A stretch of 64,000 bases of DNA from Bacteroidota bacterium. GTDB taxonomy: Bacteria > Bacteroidota > Bacteroidia > AKYH767-A > 2013-40CM-41-45. The notes beneath the pieces are model-generated. The model did no database searches. It was given only the letters and a program-made list of their open reading frames with translations, and was not told the DNA's origin. The DNA is taken from NCBI GenBank assembly GCA_016708785.1, contig JADJFC010000006.1, forward strand, positions 185,411-249,410, read 5' to 3'. The position numbers were made by a program, and so were the translations under genes. How positions within the stretch are numbered: position 1 is the first letter of the stretch; each line of letters starts with the position of its first letter. Positions 1 through 29,251 of this stretch are shown here, piece by piece.

Positions 1-2850
1 TATACTGCTGAGGCCAGACTTACCTTCCGGCGATCAATAACAATTTTATTTCCTTCAATCTTTTCGCTGATAATTATTTTTCCGGTAACATCGGTAAGAG
101 TGAATTCTTTCCAACCCATTCCCGTGGCGATTTCAATTGTAAACGAACCTGAATTCGGATTCGGATAGATACTGATACCTTGATTTGAATTCAAAGCGTC
201 AACAGAAGCAATAACATTCGGCAATGTAAATTCACTTGCACAATCATTAGGATCCAATGCTGTTACAGAATAGGTTCCATTCTGTGTAGGAACAAGCCAA
301 GGTTGCACACCACTGGTAACCGGCACTCCATTATAATACCATTGATACATAATGAATCCTGTCGTTGCAAAGATGGTATCACCAATCTGAACCAATGTAA
401 CAGGTACAGGTACAAATACGTTTATCAGTGAAGCTTGTGTTAATGACGCAGAGCCACCGGAATTTGATGCGGTCAAAGTGATGTTGTATGTGCCGGGGGC
501 ACTATAGCAAATACCGGTTGGATTTGCAGCTGTGCTTGTTGATGGAGTACCTCCCGGGAAATTCCACAAGTAGGAAGTCGCATTTGTAGAATAATTGGTG
601 AAATTTATGCATGCACCAGGACATAGATTTGTTTGCGAGCATATGAAATCAGGAACAGGAGGAGCGCTAGGGACGCACAGATCTGTGTAAGACATTTTAA
701 AACAGATCATATCATAGCCACCGGACGATGTTGAACAATACGTGGGATTGGTAATAGGAAATGCAGATTGAGTACATAAGGCATAATATAAATTTCCGGC
801 ATCATCGAAACGATCATAACCTCCATGGCTATGTTCATAGGTCGGAGAACCAATATAACTTCCATAAAGAAGTGTATCCATATCACGGGTAAATATATTG
901 ACATAGATATCCTGGTAATCAGCCGAAGTTGCCTGGAATGCATTTGGAGTAGTTGGCATATAAGCTCCACCAGAAGTACTAGTTGTAAATCCTGCGCAAA
1001 GAATATGATCGCAATCATCAATCTTGAAAGCACTAGGAATTAGGCATAACGCACCTAAACCATTACCGTAAGCAGTACATAACATAAGAGTGGCGAGAGC
1101 AGGATCAAATTTTGCAAGAAAAGTTCCTGTGTTCTGATTCGTATAAACACTCGGCGATACAGGTACTGTACCCAAACTTCCCCCAAAAACAAAAATATTG
1201 CCTGTAGAATTTACAGCTACTCTAAAACCTTTTTCACCTGAGGTTGTAGGTCCGAAATAAGTTGAATAAGTTAATCCGGATCCACCTGAATTCAGAACAC
1301 TTATAAATCCGTCAATATCTCCAACTCCAACTTTACTACCTTGATAAACACCGGCAGTCACAGGGAAGTTATTACTTAATGTAGCTCCGGTTACTACAAT
1401 ATCTCCGGCTGCATTTTCACAAATTGCTGTTATGATGTCATCACTTATACCTCCAAGGAATGTTGAGAATAACATTGAACTCAGTGAGCTATTCAACTTA
1501 AAAATACATCCATCTGCTCCACCGCCATTCGTTGGTTGGTAGCCTCCAACAGAAGGAAAGTCAGTAGTTGACATTGTATAACATCCAACAACAGGATTAC
1601 CTGACGGATCGATAAACAAATCACCGGCAGTTTCATAAAATCCTGACATGCTTGTAGAACTATTATTTGCTCCGTCATCGTTTGATCCACCAACAAATGT
1701 TGAACCTAATAATTGTGTTCCATCATACGATAATTTAGAAACAAACATATCGTTCATGCCATTATACGTTGAATCGTAAGCCGAAGAACCAACAGGGAAA
1801 TCTGAACTGCTTGTGGTACCGAATACAAATAATTCATCGGTAGAATTACACAACATTCCCAATGGAACATCAGTACTGAATCCGCCTAAATATGTGGCCC
1901 AAACTGTACCTGCATTTACAGGGTCAAACTTATGGATACCAACATCAGTAGACCCTGCATAGGAAATATCATATGCACCAAAACTTGTTGGCCACCCTTG
2001 TCCATTCACAACTGCAGAACCAAAGGTCTTTCCACTTGAATCAAAGGATCCATTGCAACCAAATGCAGAGGCTGTTGAACAACTGAAAGTAGAGAATACG
2101 AGAGCGGGATCGATTACGAATTCACGACCTGCAATATTAACTCCATTAATATCAAATGTAATGTCATGACCATTTATTTTATAATTACATTCTACTTTTT
2201 TCTGTTTTGACCCATCGACAATATAAGCAGCCGGGATTTTTTCAGCGATATTACCAACTGATGTTTGATAGACAAGACTTCCTCCTTTAATAAAAATATT
2301 CTCGACACCTTCTTCATGCATAATAATATCAGAGATTCTTGCTCCCGGATGCAGGATGAGATCATACTTAAAACTTTCTCCGACTGAATAAACTTTCAGA
2401 TCAATATTCGGATAAAGGTTTTCATAGAGAACTTCTGAATATGCATTTACATGTGAGGCCCATTTCGACGGGTCGTTGCCAATATAATAATTTGAATAAC
2501 CGGGAACTGTAGCGCCAGGTTTAATTGACACAGTTGATGAATTTTTAAACGTCACTTTGTACGTGTGACATTTGAGTCTCACATCTTTACTTGCAAGACT
2601 TGCATCATGACCTTTTTTGAGATCTTCCGAATCAAAAAAAGTAAACATGAATCCATCGTTCGTCAGAAATACATTTCCTCCGGGTAAGTCTGAACGGTAC
2701 TTTGCTTGTTCATTCCACTGACCTTTGTTTTCGGCAAATTGAACCGCAGCGTTAGCTGAAAAAACTCCTGTCAGAAATAAAACAGACAAAATATACAGTC
2801 TTAATAAAAAATGGTTTTGAAACTTTTTTGGTGTGAAAAGTGGCTTCATT
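1..2850 (-). CDS. T9SS-secreted large surface protein (signal peptide, SBBP/beta-propeller-like repeats, PKD domain, C-terminal T9SS sorting domain); C-terminal few residues run off window start
   Basis: Minus-strand translation from ATG at 2850: MKPLFTPKKFQNHFLLRLYILSVLFLTGVFSANA... The frame stays open to position 1. The last residues in the window, ISIYPNPNSGSFTIEIATGMGWKEFTLTDVTGKII, are a typical T9SS CTD. It is absent from the ORF track because no stop lies inside the window. Confidence 0.7.
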
Positions 2851-2978
2851 TTAGTGTGTTTGGTTAGAGCAAATGAATGTAGGGAATATTTCGGCATAGC
2901 AAAATGATGTTTTTGGTCAAATGGCTGTAATGTGGGGTGGATTGTTCTTCATTCGCAGGATATCTCAATTTGTTTTAG

Positions 2979-21748: not shown

Positions 21749-22387
21749 ATGGCAGAATTAACAGTCAGTAAAAGAAAGAAAGAACGGATCCTAGAAGTAT
21801 CGGAAGAACTGTTTGCAGAGTTTGGCTATGATCGAACTTCTGTGAGAATGATTGCACAAAAGGCAAACATCAACATTGCAATGATCTCCTACTATTTCGG
21901 CTCGAAGGAATTACTTTTCACTGAATTGGTAGAATATCGTGCATTGAGTTTTCGTCTACGGTTACAGGATATTCAAAAGGAGATTGAAGATCCAATGAAA
22001 CAAATTGAAATGATGATCGATGGTTACGTCGATAAAGTTTTTGTCAATCACCGTTTTCACAAAATTCTGCATCGACAAATTTCATTACAGAATTCTTCTG
22101 AATTGAATGTACAGATCCAATCGATTCTAATGAAGAATATCAACGAAGTAAAAAACATCATTGAATCAGGCATAAAGAAAAAAGTGTTTCGCCAGGTTGA
22201 TGTGGAATTTTTAATCATCACGTTTTTTGGAACTGTCTCGCAATTTTCTAATTCAAGTGGATTATCACTTAGCCTTCTTAATCTTGATCAGGGAATGCAT
22301 TTAACGCAGATTCCGGAAATGAAAAGCAGGATGAAAAAATACCTGACTGAGCTTTTTGCAAAGTACCTACTTATAACTAATAATTAA
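21749..22387 (+). CDS. TetR/AcrR-family transcriptional repressor
   Basis: 212 aa. N-terminal TetR HTH (RILEVSEELFAEFGYDRTSVRMIAQKANINIAMISYYFGSKE). Confidence 0.85.
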   Translation: MAELTVSKRKKERILEVSEELFAEFGYDRTSVRMIAQKANINIAMISYYFGSKELLFTELVEYRALSFRLRLQDIQKEIEDPMKQIEMMIDGYVDKVFVNHRFHKILHRQISLQNSSELNVQIQSILMKNINEVKNIIESGIKKKVFRQVDVEFLIITFFGTVSQFSNSSGLSLSLLNLDQGMHLTQIPEMKSRMKKYLTELFAKYLLITNN

Positions 22388-22423
22388 TAACGAAAAGTGA
22401 ATAATTACATCGATTAAGAAGCG

Positions 22424-22478
22424 GTGCTACTTACCACTCACCAATTACAAATTACCTTTTACCACTTTACCACTCACC
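22424..22478. repeat. Family C repeat, inverted orientation (CCACTCACC words)
   Basis: GTGCTACTTACCACTCACCAATTACAAATTACCTTTTACCACTTTACCACTCACC. Between tetR and the HlyD-family gene. Confidence 0.75.
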
Positions 22479-22488
22479 AAAATAAAAA

Positions 22489-23529
22489 ATGGAAACTCCA
22501 GAACCAAAAAAGAAAAAGAAAATCGTACCGATCATATTAGTATTGGTCGTCGGACTGATCTTATTTTATGTATTTAACAAGATCACTTATGCTCGTCATC
22601 ATGAGGATACGGATGATGCGCAAATTGACAATGATATCAATCCGGTGATGGCAAGAATTACCGGTTATGTTGATCAAATTCGATTTGAGGACAATCAACT
22701 TGTACATAAAGGCGACACACTTGTTTTGCTGGATGACCGTGACCTACAGATCAGAGTTGAACAAGCAGAAGCTGCTTTGGAAAATGCAAAAGCAGGCGTA
22801 ACAGTTGCTGAAGCAAATGTGAGTTCAGCCATAGCCAACTTTGAAACTGCTAAATCGACGTCGGAAGCAAGTCGTATTCGTGTTTGGAAGGCAACAACTG
22901 ATTACACTCGTTATGAAAATCTGTTAAAGGATAAAGCCATTGCACAACAAAAGTTTGATGTAGCAAAAGCAGAAAAGGAATCAGCAGAAGCAGGGCAAGT
23001 AATTGCACAACATCAACAAGCGGCAGCAAGCGCTATGGTCGAGGCAGCGAAAAAACAAATTTCTGTGGCAAATGCAAATGTGACACTGAAGCACGCAGAT
23101 CTTGATTATGCAAAACTCCAATTGTCGTACGCTACTATTATTGCGCCGGCATCAGGACTTGCTTCTAAAAAAAGCATTCAACCCGGACAACTTGTGAATG
23201 CAGGTGCAAATCTTTTTGCCATTGTGTCTAACAACAGCGTTTATGTTGTTGCCAATTTCAAAGAAACACAACTTGAACAAATGCAAAAAGGAAATTCCGT
23301 CGAAGTTATTGTGGATGCCTATCCAAACACCAAATTGGAAGGCACTATTGATAATTTCTCTGCGGCAACAGGAGCAAAATTTTCTCTTCTCCCACCCGAC
23401 AATGCAACAGGAAACTTTGTGAAAGTAATCCAAAGGGTACCGGTTAAAATTATTTTGAAAAATTCAGAAGCGCTGAAGGATAAGTTGAGGCCGGGGATGT
23501 CGGTGAAGGTGTCTGTGAAGGTAAGCTGA
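22489..23529 (+). CDS. HlyD-family membrane fusion protein (EmrA-like)
   Basis: 346 aa. N-terminal TMS and a long coiled-coil (AEAALENAKAGV...). C-terminal beta-barrel/lipoyl-type HlyD domain. Confidence 0.82.
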   Translation: METPEPKKKKKIVPIILVLVVGLILFYVFNKITYARHHEDTDDAQIDNDINPVMARITGYVDQIRFEDNQLVHKGDTLVLLDDRDLQIRVEQAEAALENAKAGVTVAEANVSSAIANFETAKSTSEASRIRVWKATTDYTRYENLLKDKAIAQQKFDVAKAEKESAEAGQVIAQHQQAAASAMVEAAKKQISVANANVTLKHADLDYAKLQLSYATIIAPASGLASKKSIQPGQLVNAGANLFAIVSNNSVYVVANFKETQLEQMQKGNSVEVIVDAYPNTKLEGTIDNFSAATGAKFSLLPPDNATGNFVKVIQRVPVKIILKNSEALKDKLRPGMSVKVSVKVS

Positions 23530-23610
23530 TTCAAAGTTAAAAGTATTTTAGAAAAATAAATCGCTGCCCAAAGTAAAAAATAAATTACCAATAAATTATC
23601 AAAAGCTCTA

Positions 23611-23655
23611 GGTTCAAGGCCAACTTTGAACTTTGAACTCAGAACTTTGAACTCA
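23611..23655. repeat. Family F tandem repeat (ACTTTGAACT words) upstream of emrB-like gene
   Basis: GGTTCAAGGCCAACTTTGAACTTTGAACTCAGAACTTTGAACTC, then an A-run. Confidence 0.7.
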
Positions 23656-23660
23656 AAAAA

Positions 23661-25211
23661 ATGCCCGAACAAGGTTTCAATAAATGGATCATCACGTTCA
23701 CCGTGATCATGGCGTCGTTGCTGGAGTTGATCGATACAACTGTGGTCAACGTTTCTATGCCGCAGATCATGGGGAATTTGGGGGCGACGTTAGAGGATGT
23801 CGGTTGGCTTGTTACTGCATATGCTGTTGCCAACGTAATTATTCTTCCAATGTCAGGATGGCTTTCTGCGAAATTCGGAAGGAAAAATTACTTCATTTTT
23901 TCAATTGTACTCTTTACTGTCGCTTCATTCTTTTGTGGTAATGCAGATAATATCTGGGAACTTGTCATCTTCCGTTTCATTCAGGGAATTGGTGGTGGTG
24001 CTTTGCTTGGAACATCACAATCAATTTTAGTAGAGACATGGCCGAAAGAACAATTAGGAATGGCTACTGCAATGTTTGGACTCGGAGTAGTTGTCGGTCC
24101 GACTTTAGGCCCAACTCTTGGCGGGTACATCACAGATCATTTTTCTTGGCCGTGGATCTTTTACGTGAACATTCCACTAGGGGTAATTGCTGTTCTATTA
24201 AGTATGGCTTACATCAAAGATTCAAAAGTCGTTCAGAAGATAGGAGCCGTCGATTGGGCCGGAATATTTTTTCTAATCCTTGGAGTTGGTTCACTTCAGG
24301 TTGTATTGGAAAAAGGTGAAGGCGAAGATTGGTTTCAAACGCCATACATTTCTGTATTGACTGCATTATCCGTTATTGGAATTGCATTATTTATCTGGCG
24401 AGAATTAACTGCTGAACATCCGATTGTTAATCTCCGCATTCTGAAAAATCGTGAATTGTCCATCGGAATGTTCACGACATTCATTCTTGGCTTCGGATTA
24501 TTCGGATCGGTATTCGTGTTTCCAATCTTCTGCCAAAATTTACTTGGCTTTACGGCTCAACAAACAGGAGAACTTTTAATCCCAGGCGGTCTGGCAACTA
24601 TATTCATGATGCCAATGGTAGGTAAATTGTTGCAGAGAAAAGTTCCACCCCAGATCATGGCAACCGGAGGATTCATTCTCTTCTTTATTTTTACGTATCT
24701 AATGTCAAACTCAAGTTTGTCGTCAGGAGAAAGCGATTTTTATCTGCCCTTGATCATTCGCGGAATGGGCTTAAGTTTATTGTTTGTCCCTTTGACAACA
24801 CTTGCACTTGGCTCATTAAAACCTGAAAACATTGCGCAAGGAACAGGACTGAATAATATGATGCGACAACTGGGTGGTTCATTCGGTGTTGCTCTTGTAA
24901 CAACATTTATCCATTTACGTCACGCGCATCATCGCAGCGATCTTATCGAACATATCAATCCATTCAATACTGCATTCAATGAACGTTTTCAGGCATATTA
25001 CCACAACTTTCTTTCCAGAGGATTTGATCCTGCGAAAGCGGAACAACTAACTTACAAAGCAATTGACCTAACAGTTGTAAAGCAAACGTATTTGATGACG
25101 TATATGGATGCTTTTTGGTTCATTGGGGTGTTTTTCATTACTTGTATTCCGCTGCTATATCTTCAAAGATTTAACAGGAGTGCGAAGATTTCTGCTGCGG
25201 ATGTGCATTAA
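23661..25211 (+). CDS. DHA2-family MFS multidrug efflux transporter (EmrB/QacA-like, 14 TMS)
   Basis: 516 aa. MFS motif A LSAKFGRKNYF. A 14-TMS hydropathy pattern with the central extra helix pair typical of EmrB. Confidence 0.82.
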   Translation: MPEQGFNKWIITFTVIMASLLELIDTTVVNVSMPQIMGNLGATLEDVGWLVTAYAVANVIILPMSGWLSAKFGRKNYFIFSIVLFTVASFFCGNADNIWELVIFRFIQGIGGGALLGTSQSILVETWPKEQLGMATAMFGLGVVVGPTLGPTLGGYITDHFSWPWIFYVNIPLGVIAVLLSMAYIKDSKVVQKIGAVDWAGIFFLILGVGSLQVVLEKGEGEDWFQTPYISVLTALSVIGIALFIWRELTAEHPIVNLRILKNRELSIGMFTTFILGFGLFGSVFVFPIFCQNLLGFTAQQTGELLIPGGLATIFMMPMVGKLLQRKVPPQIMATGGFILFFIFTYLMSNSSLSSGESDFYLPLIIRGMGLSLLFVPLTTLALGSLKPENIAQGTGLNNMMRQLGGSFGVALVTTFIHLRHAHHRSDLIEHINPFNTAFNERFQAYYHNFLSRGFDPAKAEQLTYKAIDLTVVKQTYLMTYMDAFWFIGVFFITCIPLLYLQRFNRSAKISAADVH

Positions 25212-25214
25212 AAA

Positions 25215-25246
25215 GGAAAGCCGGTCAATTCAGACCGGCTTTTTTG
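25215..25246 (+). terminator. Rho-independent terminator of the tetR-emrAB-like operon
   Basis: AAAGCCGGTC aattca GACCGGCTTTTTTG, a GC-rich 10-bp stem followed by a T-run. Confidence 0.7.
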
Positions 25247-25282: not shown

Positions 25283-25987
25283 TTATAATTTCGAAATCTC
25301 CCCACTCCCAATGATCTTCGAAGAAATTTTTCCCGGCTCCTGTACGTAATGCACATTCCCGCTTCCCGTGATGGTTACATTCAGATCATTTTTTACATCA
25401 ACTGTACTTGTTCCACTTCCACTGATCGCAACTGCACTTGAAAAACAATTCAGTTCATGTGCATTGATGTTTCCGCTTCCGCTAATACGATAATCTGTTT
25501 CTGCTGAACCGCCATTGAGAACCAAATTTCCTGAACCTGACAGATTTGCTTTCAGTGATTTACTGTTCACCATCACTCTGATATCGCCTGAACCTGATAA
25601 TTTGATATTCATGAAATCACATAGAAACTGACTGCGTGTTACTATATTTCCTGAACCCGTAAGCTCGAGAAGACAAAGATCTTTTACGGTAATATAAATT
25701 GTAACCGGCTTTGTGTATTTGATATTGTCTTCGTCATCGATTACCAGCGAATTGTTTTTTACTGTCGTGTTAATTTTTCCGAGGAGATTATCTTCTGCCT
25801 CAACACGAACTTCCTGAACATCGCCTTGTGTTACATATACATTTGCTGCACTTTTCAATTCGATACCGCTGAATGATTCTAATTGGCGGACTTCTGATGT
25901 TATTTTTCCTGAACCTTCTGTACGACAACCGTATGAAGTTGTAGTTAGGAGAAGGATTGATGCTAGGATTAAAAGATTTGTTTTCAT
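25283..25987 (-). CDS. GIN-domain (DUF2807, putative adhesin head) lipoprotein
   Basis: 234 aa. Lipobox TTTSYGC. Repeated GSGNI/GSGDI/GSGEI beta-helix rungs typical of the DUF2807/DUF4097 clan. Confidence 0.7.
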   Translation of the reverse strand: MKTNLLILASILLLTTTSYGCRTEGSGKITSEVRQLESFSGIELKSAANVYVTQGDVQEVRVEAEDNLLGKINTTVKNNSLVIDDEDNIKYTKPVTIYITVKDLCLLELTGSGNIVTRSQFLCDFMNIKLSGSGDIRVMVNSKSLKANLSGSGNLVLNGGSAETDYRISGSGNINAHELNCFSSAVAISGSGTSTVDVKNDLNVTITGSGNVHYVQEPGKISSKIIGSGEISKL

Positions 25988-26040
25988 TTTGATTTAATTG
26001 TGTGATTTAACTATTTAGTAAATTTATACTTTATGAGAGA

Positions 26041-27429
26041 TTAGAAGCCAATAAATGTTATTCCCACATTAACAGGATATAGAACCGGACCTTCGTTGTT
26101 TTTAAAGAGTGTTGATGCATAGTATTCTCCGTAGACATTAAATCGGCCGTATCCAATTGCTGCTCTGAAACCATAACGGAACGGATTTACATTGTGATTA
26201 CTGAAATCTTTTGCTTTACTGGTCTCGCCTGCAACTTCTACTTTTTGTTTTGTATGTGAACCAACCAGTAATCCAACCATTCCTCCTACTCCAATGTGAA
26301 ATGCATTTTTAGTATTTCTGCTTGTGAAGACTTCAAACATTAATGGAGCCATTAGATACGTTGTTACCAATTTACTCTTTATGTGAGCAACACCGGGAGT
26401 TGTGTCATGGTATGCTGTTGTGTAATCGCTTTTTGTAAGGAGAATATCATTATCGAAGCGATAATTGTTCCATGTAAACCCAAGGCCTGTAAAGAACCAG
26501 ACGTTACTATGTCCAAGTTCAATATTCTTTTGTAAAATGTTTAGTCCAACACTGATTGACTTCTCAACACGCAATTCGAAATTTTCTTTTCCGGGTGAAA
26601 GATTAAATGTTCCGCCATTATCCATATACGAATTTATTCCCATTTCAAATCCGCCCCAGATCGGCTTTGTATTGGAACGTTTGACCTTCACTTCATCCGT
26701 TTTACCAATGAACCATAATTGTGAATCTCCAAGATTGATACGCGTCGTATCCACTTTATTGCTGCCTGTAGAACTGTCGCTCATTTTTATCTTACCAATT
26801 CCGGAAATATTTTCATTTAACTTCTTAGGTAGCGTTTTGTAAATGATCGTTCCGCTGCCACTCACACTTGAATTCAGTTCTTCAGAAGCATCTAATGTGA
26901 TCTTACCGATTCCGGAAATAGAAGCATCCGCTTTTTGCACTTTCAGATCTTCTGCATCGATCTTTCCTGATCCGGGAACACTGAATTCAGCTTCATTGGC
27001 TTTGCCCGTTAATTCAATTTTTCCGGCGCCGGGAACTGTGGCTCTTACTTTAGAAGCATCGAGATCCATTTTAATTTTACCGTTACCGTTTATGATCAAT
27101 TCAATGTAATCGGTTTTGATCGTTGACTCGCTATAGACATCTGCTTTGCCGTCGACGTTAACTTCGTCCAGACTTGGCATTGTAATGAAATAGGTATTGC
27201 CTGTTGAATTGTCGATGTAAAGCGTTTGGTTATTTACATTCGCTTCGTCAGTGCTGATCAATGATCCGACAACTTTTACGGATTGAATCGGATCGATACG
27301 AACGTAAACAGTTGCGATGCTTGTTACTTTGATCTTTGTAAATGGACCTACCTGGAGGTTTGCTGTCTTTTGTCCTTTTGTAGTTGCTGCGATTATAAGT
27401 AATGCAGCGAGGAGTTTTAATGATTTCAT
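26041..27429 (-). CDS. Fusion of GIN-domain (DUF2807) beta-helix with C-terminal outer-membrane beta-barrel
   Basis: 462 aa. Signal peptide. N-terminal half has GxGKI rungs (PGAGKIELTG, PGSGKIDAED, SGIGKITLDA, SGSGTIIY, SGIGKIKM). C-terminal half has alternating hydrophobic beta-strands ending in ITFIGF (OMP C-terminal Phe). Confidence 0.65.
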   Translation of the reverse strand: MKSLKLLAALLIIAATTKGQKTANLQVGPFTKIKVTSIATVYVRIDPIQSVKVVGSLISTDEANVNNQTLYIDNSTGNTYFITMPSLDEVNVDGKADVYSESTIKTDYIELIINGNGKIKMDLDASKVRATVPGAGKIELTGKANEAEFSVPGSGKIDAEDLKVQKADASISGIGKITLDASEELNSSVSGSGTIIYKTLPKKLNENISGIGKIKMSDSSTGSNKVDTTRINLGDSQLWFIGKTDEVKVKRSNTKPIWGGFEMGINSYMDNGGTFNLSPGKENFELRVEKSISVGLNILQKNIELGHSNVWFFTGLGFTWNNYRFDNDILLTKSDYTTAYHDTTPGVAHIKSKLVTTYLMAPLMFEVFTSRNTKNAFHIGVGGMVGLLVGSHTKQKVEVAGETSKAKDFSNHNVNPFRYGFRAAIGYGRFNVYGEYYASTLFKNNEGPVLYPVNVGITFIGF

Positions 27430-27523
27430 ATGTATTGTTATTTGTTGTTTTTCGTTTTATAATAATGGGACGCGGTGGGTGGTGGAGAAGTTACAGGAGC
27501 TTGGAAAAAAATTCTAAAGTCAA

Positions 27524-27610
27524 AACACTAAGAACACAAGTTCACAAAAGTCCACGGAATTTGAGAATTATAGATTCCGTGGGCTTTTGTGAACTTGTGT
27601 TCTTAGTGTT
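27524..27610. repeat. Family G long hairpin (GTGAACTTGTG / CCACGGAAT words), about 37-bp stem
   Basis: AACACTAAGAACACAAGTTCACAAAAGTCCACGGAAT / 13-nt loop / ATTCCGTGGGCTTTTGTGAACTTGTGTTCTTAGTGTT with one mismatch. A related copy is at 47097-47159. Confidence 0.85.
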
Positions 27611-27630
27611 AAAAAATATTTTTGCTTTCC

Positions 27631-28764
27631 TTATTTCCCGCTCGTATGCGACACAGAAAATTTCTTCCCCACATTCACAGCAAAGGTATTCGCATCTTTA
27701 GCTACGGCGATATCTTTTGAGTCGGAAAAATGTTTCAGCTTTTCTGCAGCGAAGTCGAGGATGTTGCCGGGCTCGGATTTTTTAGTGTCTATATTTGCAA
27801 TTCCTAATTCGGCGAGTTCTTCGGTGGTGAAAACTTCGGAGAGATCATTTACCTGGCCTAATTTATGACCGGGCTTTTTTGGATTACTTGGATTTACCGG
27901 CTTATTGGCTTGTAGTGATTCAGAAGGATTTGAAATTGGGTTGACAATTTTGGGGGTGTTTGCTAACTTTTCTTCGGGCAAAATATTCTGCTGAACATTT
28001 TGTTGAATAGGAGATTTCACCGGTGCTTCCTCTTTGCGGATATTTTTTTGTTCTGCAAATGAAGGTGAGACTGACGGAGATTGTTTTACTTTATTGTTTT
28101 CTAATTTACGTTCATTCGTTTTATTCTCATCATTCTTTTGAGAATTATCGTTTTCATGATTATTAGTGGACGGTTTAATGTCTGCGATTGGCGCCGGAGT
28201 AGTTGAGTTATCATTGTGTGGCGCTTTTACCGGAACTTCAGAATTATTTTTATCGTCAGCAATCATTTTCTCATCCTTACGATCGGGACGGAAAATGAAA
28301 TATGCAATGGCGATCAGAATAATTGAAGCGGCAATAGATAAGTTTCTGTACAACGAAGTTGAGAAAGAAATAACTTTCGCTTCTCTTTTTAATGCAGACT
28401 TATTTGCAAAAAGAATTGTGTAGTCAGGAAGTACTCTGGTTTTTTTAACGATGTCCAGTTCTTGAGCAAGCGCAGAATCAACTTTAAGTTGTTGTTCTAA
28501 TTTGATCTTTTCTGCTCCACTCAAATCATTTTCGAAGTAAGCGATCAATCTTTCAGTTCTTGAAGTATCTTCTTTCTTCAAACTGTTTTTATCTGCAAAA
28601 ATAATCGGTTCCGCTTCTATTGCGGTATTAGAAAAAAGTTCGAACTCGGCTTTAAGATCCGGATTTTCATTCAGAAAAACGTGCAACTCTTCCACCTGAA
28701 CTTTGTTCAGCTTACCATCATAAAAATCGATGATATAGAGTTCGTAATTATTTCTTGTGATCAT
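27631..28764 (-). CDS. Putative anti-sigma factor (single-pass membrane protein with N/K/P-rich periplasmic region)
   Basis: 377 aa. Its start is 1 bp after the ECF sigma stop. One TMS (LSIAASIILIAIAYFIF) is followed by a low-complexity Asn/Lys/Pro/Ser-rich segment. No zinc-finger motif is present, so the assignment rests on position. Confidence 0.55.
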   Translation of the reverse strand: MITRNNYELYIIDFYDGKLNKVQVEELHVFLNENPDLKAEFELFSNTAIEAEPIIFADKNSLKKEDTSRTERLIAYFENDLSGAEKIKLEQQLKVDSALAQELDIVKKTRVLPDYTILFANKSALKREAKVISFSTSLYRNLSIAASIILIAIAYFIFRPDRKDEKMIADDKNNSEVPVKAPHNDNSTTPAPIADIKPSTNNHENDNSQKNDENKTNERKLENNKVKQSPSVSPSFAEQKNIRKEEAPVKSPIQQNVQQNILPEEKLANTPKIVNPISNPSESLQANKPVNPSNPKKPGHKLGQVNDLSEVFTTEELAELGIANIDTKKSEPGNILDFAAEKLKHFSDSKDIAVAKDANTFAVNVGKKFSVSHTSGK

Positions 28765-28765
28765 G

Positions 28766-29251
28766 TCAGATAACTCTTTCCGGTGAACCGATGTATTGTT
28801 TTAAAAATAATCGTGCCCGATAAATATATACTTTCACTTGCGACTCATTCAAATCAGTGATCTTCCCAATCTCTTCATAACTGTAGCCTTCGAAATCACG
28901 AAGGGTAATTACAGCTTTCTGAATTTCAGGAAGTAAATTCAGGGCGTCATTCAGTATTTTTTTTACATCTGAATATTGCTCTGAATGAAACAGACTTTCT
29001 TCATTTACTTCTGTATAATCAGAAATATGTTTTTTCTTTCTGATGCGGTCAATCATCGTGTGATAAGCCGTTGTAAACAAATAACTCTTTGCTTTATTTC
29101 CATCCACCTTCTCATGATTCCGCCACATTTTTTCGAATGCATCCTGAACCACATCTCTGGCCTCCTCTTCATCCCTCATGTTCTTGAGGATAAATCGGAA
29201 AAGACCATCAGCGTGTTCATCAACACATTGATTGTACTGGGCGGGTGTCAT
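28766..29251 (-). CDS. ECF (sigma-70 family group IV) RNA polymerase sigma factor
   Basis: 161 aa. Region 2 (DVVQDAFEKMW) and region 4 HTH (YSYEEIGKITDLNESQVKVYIYRAR). Confidence 0.82.
   Translation of the reverse strand: MTPAQYNQCVDEHADGLFRFILKNMRDEEEARDVVQDAFEKMWRNHEKVDGNKAKSYLFTTAYHTMIDRIRKKKHISDYTEVNEESLFHSEQYSDVKKILNDALNLLPEIQKAVITLRDFEGYSYEEIGKITDLNESQVKVYIYRARLFLKQYIGSPERVI

Follow-up and report, generated by a model that had tools for sequence, protein, structure and literature searches.

Bacteroidota genomes carry dozens of sigma factors of the extracytoplasmic function (ECF) type apiece, and few of these have a known target or signal. What such a sigma factor controls, and how its signal could reach it from the envelope, is the question raised by a locus on contig JADJFC010000006.1 of a Bacteroidota bacterium (assembly GCA_016708785.1), analysed here within a stretch of 64,000 nucleotides (the window). 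In this locus a sigma gene and a putative anti-sigma gene are followed by a gene for a protein combining a DUF2807/GIN beta-helix with an outer-membrane (OM) beta-barrel, called the GIN-barrel protein below, and by a gene for a small GIN lipoprotein. The module is an undescribed variant whose sigma, anti-sigma and barrel genes form a trio conserved in many uncultured Bacteroidota. The evidence points to an autoregulated ECF sigma/anti-sigma envelope module with the adjacent GIN-barrel operon as its dedicated direct target, an explanation that we regard as probable in its entirety. Its regulon part is held with high confidence; that the barrel protein also feeds back on the anti-sigma tether, or is sensed by it, is a tentative addition that we think rather unlikely.

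Gene linkage and a shared promoter motif

Four open reading frames (ORFs) on the minus strand were confirmed in the ORF list of the 64-kb window, and the gene content and domain calls of an earlier reading of the DNA from its letters and translations (the sequence-only reading) are correct. The first gene (28766..29251) encodes an ECF (group IV) sigma factor of 161 amino acids (aa), in which regions 2 and 4 alone are present (Pfam Sigma70_r2, 7e-14; Sigma70_r4_2, 3e-16) and which passes the ECF superfamily model TIGR02937 (sigma70-ECF) with 87.1 bits against a cutoff of 42.9. Among curated sigma families NF058625, the sigma_PG0214/GFO_1088 equivalog, gives the highest score. The window protein scores 119.1 bits and seven module sigma factors from other loci score 103-123 bits, all under its cutoff of 130; the module sigma factors are placed, by profile score, as a sister group of the PG0214/SigCH (GFO_1088) family. 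The second gene (27631..28764), whose start codon lies 1 nt past the sigma stop codon (TGAcATG), encodes a 377-aa protein identified as a putative anti-sigma factor from its position after the sigma gene, its AlphaFold2 model and its composition. The GIN-barrel gene (26041..27429, 462 aa) and the gene for the stand-alone GIN lipoprotein (25283..25987, 234 aa) complete the module.

The conservation of this arrangement was surveyed in 80 loci from different species-level genomes, metagenome-assembled genomes (MAGs) of Bacteroidota that carry Flavobacteriales, Bacteroidales, Lentimicrobiaceae or Marinilabiliales labels. The ORFs of each locus were searched with the four window proteins, and the 68 loci with at least 2.3 kb of upstream sequence were taken as informative. 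A sigma gene followed by an anti-sigma gene lies directly 5' of the GIN-barrel gene, on the same strand, in 50 of the 68, and in all 50 the sigma gene is accompanied by an anti-sigma homologue; in locus L084 the GIN-barrel gene is divergent from the sigma/anti-sigma pair. The linkage on which the sequence-only reading had staked its proposal is thus a conserved one, and its recurrence in dozens of species-level genomes puts the gene arrangement far beyond chance. Loci reached from anti-sigma homologues as the starting point (L109 and L111) again had an adjoining GIN-barrel gene. The small GIN gene is accessory, not core, since it is found downstream of the barrel gene in 19 of 74 loci; it is upstream in 7. 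Clustering of all ORFs of the 80 loci gave no other specific conserved partner gene; the synteny seen was limited to housekeeping genes (serine dehydratase, LepA, YebC and nuo).

A sister module lacking GIN defines the core further. Four loci (L081 and L104-L106) encode a sigma factor, an anti-sigma factor and an OMP_b-brl_2 barrel protein of 318-340 aa, the L081 barrel being 32% identical to that of the window, and this GIN-less barrel family has at least 646 members. Because these loci keep the trio without GIN, the conserved core is the sigma factor, the anti-sigma factor and the small barrel, and in one branch GIN has been added at the N-terminus. The barrel proteins of L081, L104 and L105 carry an uncharacterised N-terminal region of about 120 residues, and the neighbours of the sister module show a conserved synteny of their own, with GH16-like, ThiF and Peptidase_S51 genes.

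The same promoter motif was found in front of both parts of the module. Upstream of the sigma gene the boxes TGTAACTT and CGTCCCATTAT are arranged as TGTAACTT-N-CGTCCCATTAT with a 16-nt spacer; this window match, P1 (29286..29311, minus strand, ECF-type motif TGTAAC-N16-CGTC), lies 34 nt 5' of the sigma start codon. Identical boxes with a 17-nt spacer form P2 (27469..27495, minus strand, TGTAAC-N17-CGTC), 39 nt 5' of the GIN-barrel start codon. An AAC/CGT pattern is the usual signature of ECF promoters. Across the loci TGTAAC-N16/17-CGTC is located about 35-75 nt 5' of the sigma and GIN-barrel genes. Scanning 2.0 Mb from the 80 loci on both strands with the pattern TGTAAC-N15-18-CGT[CA] gave 134 matches, 103 of which sit 30-200 nt 5' of sigma, barrel or small GIN genes; some 20 others are also upstream once over-extended ORF starts are corrected, and about 11 are left as background. 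The motif precedes 46 of 50 sigma genes and 63 of 77 barrel genes, with spacers of 16 or 17 nt exclusively. Barrel genes with no sigma neighbour are still preceded by it (for example in L028, L061, L062 and L075-L079), as are the barrel genes of the GIN-less sister family, and the shared intergenic region of L084 bears it on both strands. P2 and its leader are conserved in close strains from CCTGTAAC onward. P1 would be the autoregulatory promoter of the sigma gene, and because the motif is shared by the sigma and GIN-barrel genes, the GIN genes are likely a separate transcription unit and a direct target of the sigma factor.

Two further observations concern the motif. In L084 two tandem copies (2824-2911, minus strand) stand before the divergent GIN-barrel gene. 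In the window a third full match, TGTAAC-N16-CGTC at 24896-24921 on the plus strand, lies inside an MFS transporter gene and is oriented antisense to the GIN lipoprotein gene, facing its 3' end; with about 0.2 chance matches expected per window, it could be a chance match or an antisense promoter.

The sequence-only reading had treated the region between the regulator pair and the GIN genes differently, proposing that a large perfect hairpin there could attenuate read-through. Such a single four-gene operon would suit the shared strand, the close spacing and the great stability of the hairpin (27524..27610, no strand), which has 37-nt arms and a 13-nt loop and folds with -65 kcal/mol (z-score -11). 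Its arms are 97% complementary, with one mismatch, so that 'perfect' was an overstatement. The hairpin stands between the anti-sigma stop codon and P2 and can therefore affect P1 transcripts only, and the conserved promoter motif lies between it and the barrel gene. Sixteen metagenome contigs contain its arm sequence, in at least 10 unrelated flanking contexts and with loops of 13-130 nt, and one contig alone among the 16 (L099) is the window's own locus. The repeat family (L088-L103) has the form AACAC(T)AAGAACACAAGTTCACAAAAGnCCACGGAAT, a 13-130-nt loop and the inverse arm, and seems to be an element of this lineage similar to REP or MITE repeats. At the same position the hairpin is missing from strains whose barrel proteins are 99% (L085), 91% (L029) and 81% (L086) identical to that of the window: in L085 the slot (2605-2790) holds unrelated short repeats of GGTCAA type, and in L029 (6320-6930) about 600 nt with several palindromes of GCCCCTACGGGGC type. 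Between the anti-sigma stop codon and P2 the spacer ranges from 6 to 614 nt among the loci with no conserved structure, and this slot 5' of P2, hypervariable between close strains, appears to be a hot spot of repeat insertion. The hairpin is no conserved part of the module. It is one copy of a dispersed palindromic repeat, inserted in an intergenic slot that tolerates such insertions. On these grounds the attenuator was rejected, and the single-operon arrangement is scarcely credible. An intrinsic-terminator scan did not call the hairpin, whose UUUUG tail is partly within the stem; it may incidentally terminate P1 transcripts.

At the other end of the GIN transcription unit, the lipoprotein gene begins 53 nt past the barrel gene, and no promoter motif was found before it in the window; given this spacing and the lack of a motif of its own, it is probably co-transcribed with the barrel gene. 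A terminator-like hairpin called by a consensus scan (25217..25242, minus strand; 10-bp stem with 6 G-C pairs and a T-rich tail) is predicted to close the unit.

The GIN-barrel protein and the GIN lipoprotein

Modelling of the 462-aa protein with AlphaFold2 (pLDDT 85.5, from a 35-sequence alignment) shows a signal helix, a beta-helix, a linker and a barrel. The GIN beta-helix occupies residues 20-216 (nt 26782-27372) and places the protein in the DUF2807/GIN (Toastrack clan) domain family; a disordered linker spans residues 219-250. The barrel (residues 255-462, nt 26044-26667) is closed and of the 8-stranded class and ends in a C-terminal Phe, in keeping with small OM barrels, which combine such a fold with a C-terminal aromatic residue. 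PF13568 (OMP_b-brl_2) is on record for most GIN-barrel orthologues, and relatives in L060 and L081 score 28.2-28.3 bits with it. The GIN domain presumably faces the periplasm. The 234-aa protein matches DUF2807 (Pfam, 4.5e-45) and contains an SYGC lipobox-like sequence, the Cys of which is kept in most orthologues. At least 216 homologues have the GIN-barrel architecture, nearly all of about 460 aa. One Bacteroidota-type GIN-barrel gene, with 34% identity, is found on a contig (L041, CALQEU020000006.1) that bears the label of a Bifidobacterium breve MAG, probably through mis-binning.

The order of the domains, an N-terminal beta-helix followed by a C-terminal barrel, mimics that of type Va autotransporters, and the Pfam label for DUF2807 is 'putative auto-transporter adhesin head'. 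The GIN beta-helix could accordingly be viewed as an adhesin passenger that is exported to the surface through the protein's own barrel. The 12-stranded translocator barrel and the alpha-helical linker in the pore that define type Va are, however, lacking from the 462-aa protein: its linker is disordered, no helix fills the pore, and 8-stranded barrels have no lumen for a passenger. Foldseek comparison with EspP and NalP gave a probability of at most 0.54 and a TM-score of at most 0.2. The autotransporter reading was rejected on barrel size and fold, and we consider it very improbable.

Unlike the window protein, the 'putative adhesin' DUF2807 lipoproteins of Bacteroides and Parabacteroides with solved structures (PDB 3pet, 3ljy, 3jx8, 3lyc and 4ygu) and the DUF2807 subunit of the Dot/Icm outer-membrane core of Legionella (7muc_AM) have no barrel fused to them, and neither a function nor a regulator is known for any of these proteins; the Legionella protein belongs to a secretion machine. 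No paper in the literature searched connects an ECF sigma factor with DUF2807 or with this barrel family. The module would provide a first regulatory context for DUF2807/GIN beta-helix proteins, of which several crystal structures exist.

The same ingredients recur, unfused, in Porphyromonas gingivalis. The sigma factor PG0214 is SigCH, for which hmuYR and cdhR are reported targets. Two products of the operon PG0214-PG0218, namely PG0217 and PG0218, are paralogous OM beta-barrel proteins, and the operon is co-regulated with an unlinked DUF2807 protein, PG0419 (PMC11018363, PMC13227078, PMC10434189). Sigma factor, OM barrels and DUF2807 are therefore common to both systems, whereas barrel and DUF2807 are separate proteins in P. 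gingivalis and are fused in the 462-aa protein of the window; as described above, the module sigma factors also stay under the NF058625 cutoff.

The GIN proteins might instead act as scaffold regulators of a membrane-stress response, in the manner of LiaF and LiaG of Firmicutes. DUF2807 has been unified with DUF4097 and DUF2154 in the Toastrack clan, a recurrent envelope-stress partner that is sometimes sigma-linked (PMC11237479), and the Toastrack genes of the Lia system are themselves stress-induced in an envelope-stress context. The likeness ends there. Lia is controlled by the LiaRS two-component system and its domain faces the cytoplasm, whereas the domains of the module are exported and its regulator is an ECF sigma factor. 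Neither in the module nor in the surveyed loci was a two-component system or a PspA, PspC or LiaI-LiaF-TM gene found, and the domain is argued to be intracellular (PMC11237479), while each of the two GIN proteins carries an export signal and one of them continues into an OM barrel. Of the LiaF analogy drawn by the sequence-only reading, shared clan membership is what remains, and a Lia- or Psp-like role is highly unlikely.

The putative anti-sigma factor and possible signalling across the envelope

The 377-aa protein has the layout of a class I anti-sigma factor: its gene is directly 3' of the sigma gene, and a single transmembrane (TM) helix separates a cytoplasmic N-terminus from an extracytoplasmic C-terminus. 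In its AlphaFold2 model two 3-helix units (residues 7-46 and 68-109, pLDDT ~88) precede the TM helix (residues 136-157), which is followed by a disordered periplasmic tether of about 140 residues (164-305, pLDDT <50) and a weakly predicted helix and beta-hairpin (335-375). The tether is rich in Asn, Lys and Pro (22, 19 and 18, respectively, among the 146 residues of the stretch 160-305), and its sequence varies among relatives; the C-terminal helix/hairpin motif of about 70 residues is conserved among them. No match to the protein was found in Pfam or NCBIfam searches, and BLAST detected no internal repeat linking the two helical units. A profile search with the N-terminus defined a family of 7,908 clusters at 50% identity. 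About 60 members whose C-termini were inspected all end in the helix and beta-hairpin motif, and Pfam searches of 10 long members returned weak zf-HC2 similarity alone. Family members differ in the number of helical units, with 1-4 matched stretches. The protein is a putative anti-sigma factor that would bind and inhibit the sigma factor.

We propose that the module consists of two transcription units served by one promoter type, TGTAAC-N16/17-CGTC. P1 would drive the sigma gene and the translationally coupled anti-sigma gene, giving positive autoregulation, and P2 would drive the OM GIN-barrel protein and the GIN lipoprotein. In the resting state the sigma factor would be kept at the inner membrane by the helical cytoplasmic N-terminus of the anti-sigma factor; upon an envelope signal the anti-sigma factor would be inactivated, probably by proteolysis as in other single-pass anti-sigma factors, and the released sigma factor would fire P1 and P2. 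The output would be a beta-helix scaffold at the OM, on its periplasmic side, anchored by the 8-stranded barrel, together with a lipid-anchored paralogue. Within this proposal we infer that the sigma factor reads the motif and is bound by the 377-aa protein, and we likewise infer the nature of the signal and the role of the GIN proteins.

Several observations weigh against this explanation. No adjacent sigma gene was found in 18 of the 68 informative loci, 7 of which have a small GIN gene upstream instead. The sequence-only reading had proposed to search the 462-aa protein with GIN and barrel profiles; the DUF2807/GIN match is at 5.5e-35 (Pfam), and the OMP_b-brl_2 score of 23.7 bits is under the gathering score, which is 27. 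Searches of Pfam and NCBIfam, a PDB profile search and Foldseek yielded no significant match of the anti-sigma N-terminus to a known anti-sigma domain: its zf-HC2 similarity is weak (Pfam E = 0.22 for the window protein, 0.002-0.025 for relatives), the PDB profile search with the N-terminus returned no match, and the Foldseek matches of the model to RskA and MucA are at E = 4-10. Finally, a target gene can double as a sensor, as FecA does, and the label 'output' may be incomplete for the GIN-barrel protein.

Such a double role would belong to a trans-envelope relay or 'split Dma', essentially the interpretation of the sequence-only reading: the GIN-barrel protein would be an OM sensor that is contacted, through barrel or GIN domain, by the C-terminal domain of the anti-sigma tether; a disturbance would free the sigma factor, and the barrel gene would be both sensor and target, like fecA, in a form of cell-surface signalling independent of TonB. 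The parts of the anti-sigma factor fit this reading, namely helical N-terminal units, a TM helix, about 140 disordered residues and a conserved C-terminal motif, and an N-terminal periplasmic domain on an OM barrel resembles the signalling domain of TonB-dependent transducers. Precedent comes from Dma1/Das1 of Bacteroides thetaiotaomicron, the equivalent of Reo/EcfO in B. fragilis and Phocaeicola vulgatus (PMC10927553, PMC13088901, PMC13114119). The Dma anti-sigma factor is a single chain in which the sigma-binding region at the N-terminus is followed by a TM helix, then by a disordered tether and finally by an OMP_b-brl_2 barrel (PMC10927553); Dma1/Reo has been shown to span both membranes, with its fused 8-stranded barrel, and controls an ECF21 sigma factor (PMC10927553, PMC13114119). 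Its regulon consists of NigD lipoproteins (PMC10927553, PMC13088901, PMC13114119).

The Dma family appears to be the closest mechanistic relative of the module, by its described parts and not by sequence. Both systems are restricted to Bacteroidota, pair an ECF sigma factor with an anti-sigma factor that has an N-terminal sigma-binding region (putative in the window protein), one TM helix and a long disordered tether, include a small barrel matched by the OMP_b-brl_2 model (for the window protein, below the gathering score) and presumably respond to stress of the envelope or OM. They differ in how the barrel is attached. In Dma it is the C-terminus of the anti-sigma factor itself, whereas the window anti-sigma factor has the disordered tether after one TM helix and no barrel on the same chain (a barrel HMM gave no match in the 377-aa protein), ending at residue 377 in the helix/hairpin of about 70 residues; the window barrel is part of another protein, where it follows an N-terminal GIN beta-helix, and the gene has a promoter motif of its own. 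The targets also differ, NigD lipoproteins for Dma1 and the GIN-barrel operon, as proposed, for this module. That in most genomes the adjacent gene encodes a barrel matched by the OMP_b-brl_2 model, subthreshold in the window protein, is an argument of the Rosetta-stone type in favour of the relay.

Evidence from the anti-sigma family speaks against it. None of the 145 top family representatives carries a barrel or GIN domain, and no fused, Dma-like intermediate was found among them. The C-terminal helix/hairpin is also present in L108 and L110, which have no adjacent barrel gene and one promoter motif per locus, and this weakens the case for specific docking on the barrel; set against barrel adjacency in a phylogenetic-profile test, the motif was uninformative to slightly negative, being present where no barrel gene adjoins. 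It is present as well in L081, where the barrel lacks GIN, and GIN is therefore unlikely to be its specific partner. On balance we regard the relay as doubtful in the form just given. The wider suggestion that signalling crosses both membranes is plausible, with the Dma family as an unexpected precedent by analogy, and is nevertheless held tentatively.

If the Dma principle can be divided between two proteins, the module would represent a third class of cell-surface signalling, one that dispenses with TonB and with barrel fusion alike. The tether would span the periplasm, its terminal helix/hairpin would dock on barrel or GIN, and OM damage or barrel mis-assembly would break the contact and free the sigma factor, so that more barrel would be made in a homeostatic loop. 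We consider this extension rather unlikely. Were it true, the roughly 7,900 clusters would place it among the commonest envelope-sensing designs in Bacteroidota; were the GIN genes output only, the module would be an ordinary though widespread ECF regulon. The parts list mirrors that of the recently discovered Dma anti-sigma factors with the barrel split off, and since tether and barrel are separately manipulable, the module offers a natural experiment on OM sensing by Dma-type systems. The autoregulated module with its dedicated GIN-barrel target, as preferred here, supplies a testable promoter motif and a defined one-operon regulon. The unnamed family to which these apply is large, with at least 216 GIN-barrel proteins, at least 646 GIN-less barrel proteins and about 7,900 anti-sigma clusters.

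The module also invites comparison with FecI-FecR-FecA and the SusC-linked ECF systems. In each, a sigma/anti-sigma pair stands beside an OM barrel gene that bears a sigma-dependent promoter (predicted in the module), and the barrel protein carries an extra N-terminal domain in the periplasm (presumed for the module). Unlike those systems, the module has no FecR domain, no 22-stranded TonB-dependent receptor and no STN domain, and its barrel is of the 8-stranded class; Pfam and NCBIfam searches gave no match to a FecR-type anti-sigma factor or to a TonB-dependent transducer with STN in any of the four proteins.

Flanking genes

No further ECF or GIN genes were found in the 64-kb window beyond the module. 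The module is flanked by a divergent serine dehydratase gene on one side and by a convergent TetR-EmrA-EmrB-like efflux operon on the other. This operon (window 21749-25211, plus strand) encodes a TetR regulator, an EmrA/HlyD-type adaptor and an EmrB-type MFS pump, and converges on the module. The loci L085 and L086 share these efflux-operon neighbours (TetR, EmrA/HlyD-type and EmrB-type) with the window.

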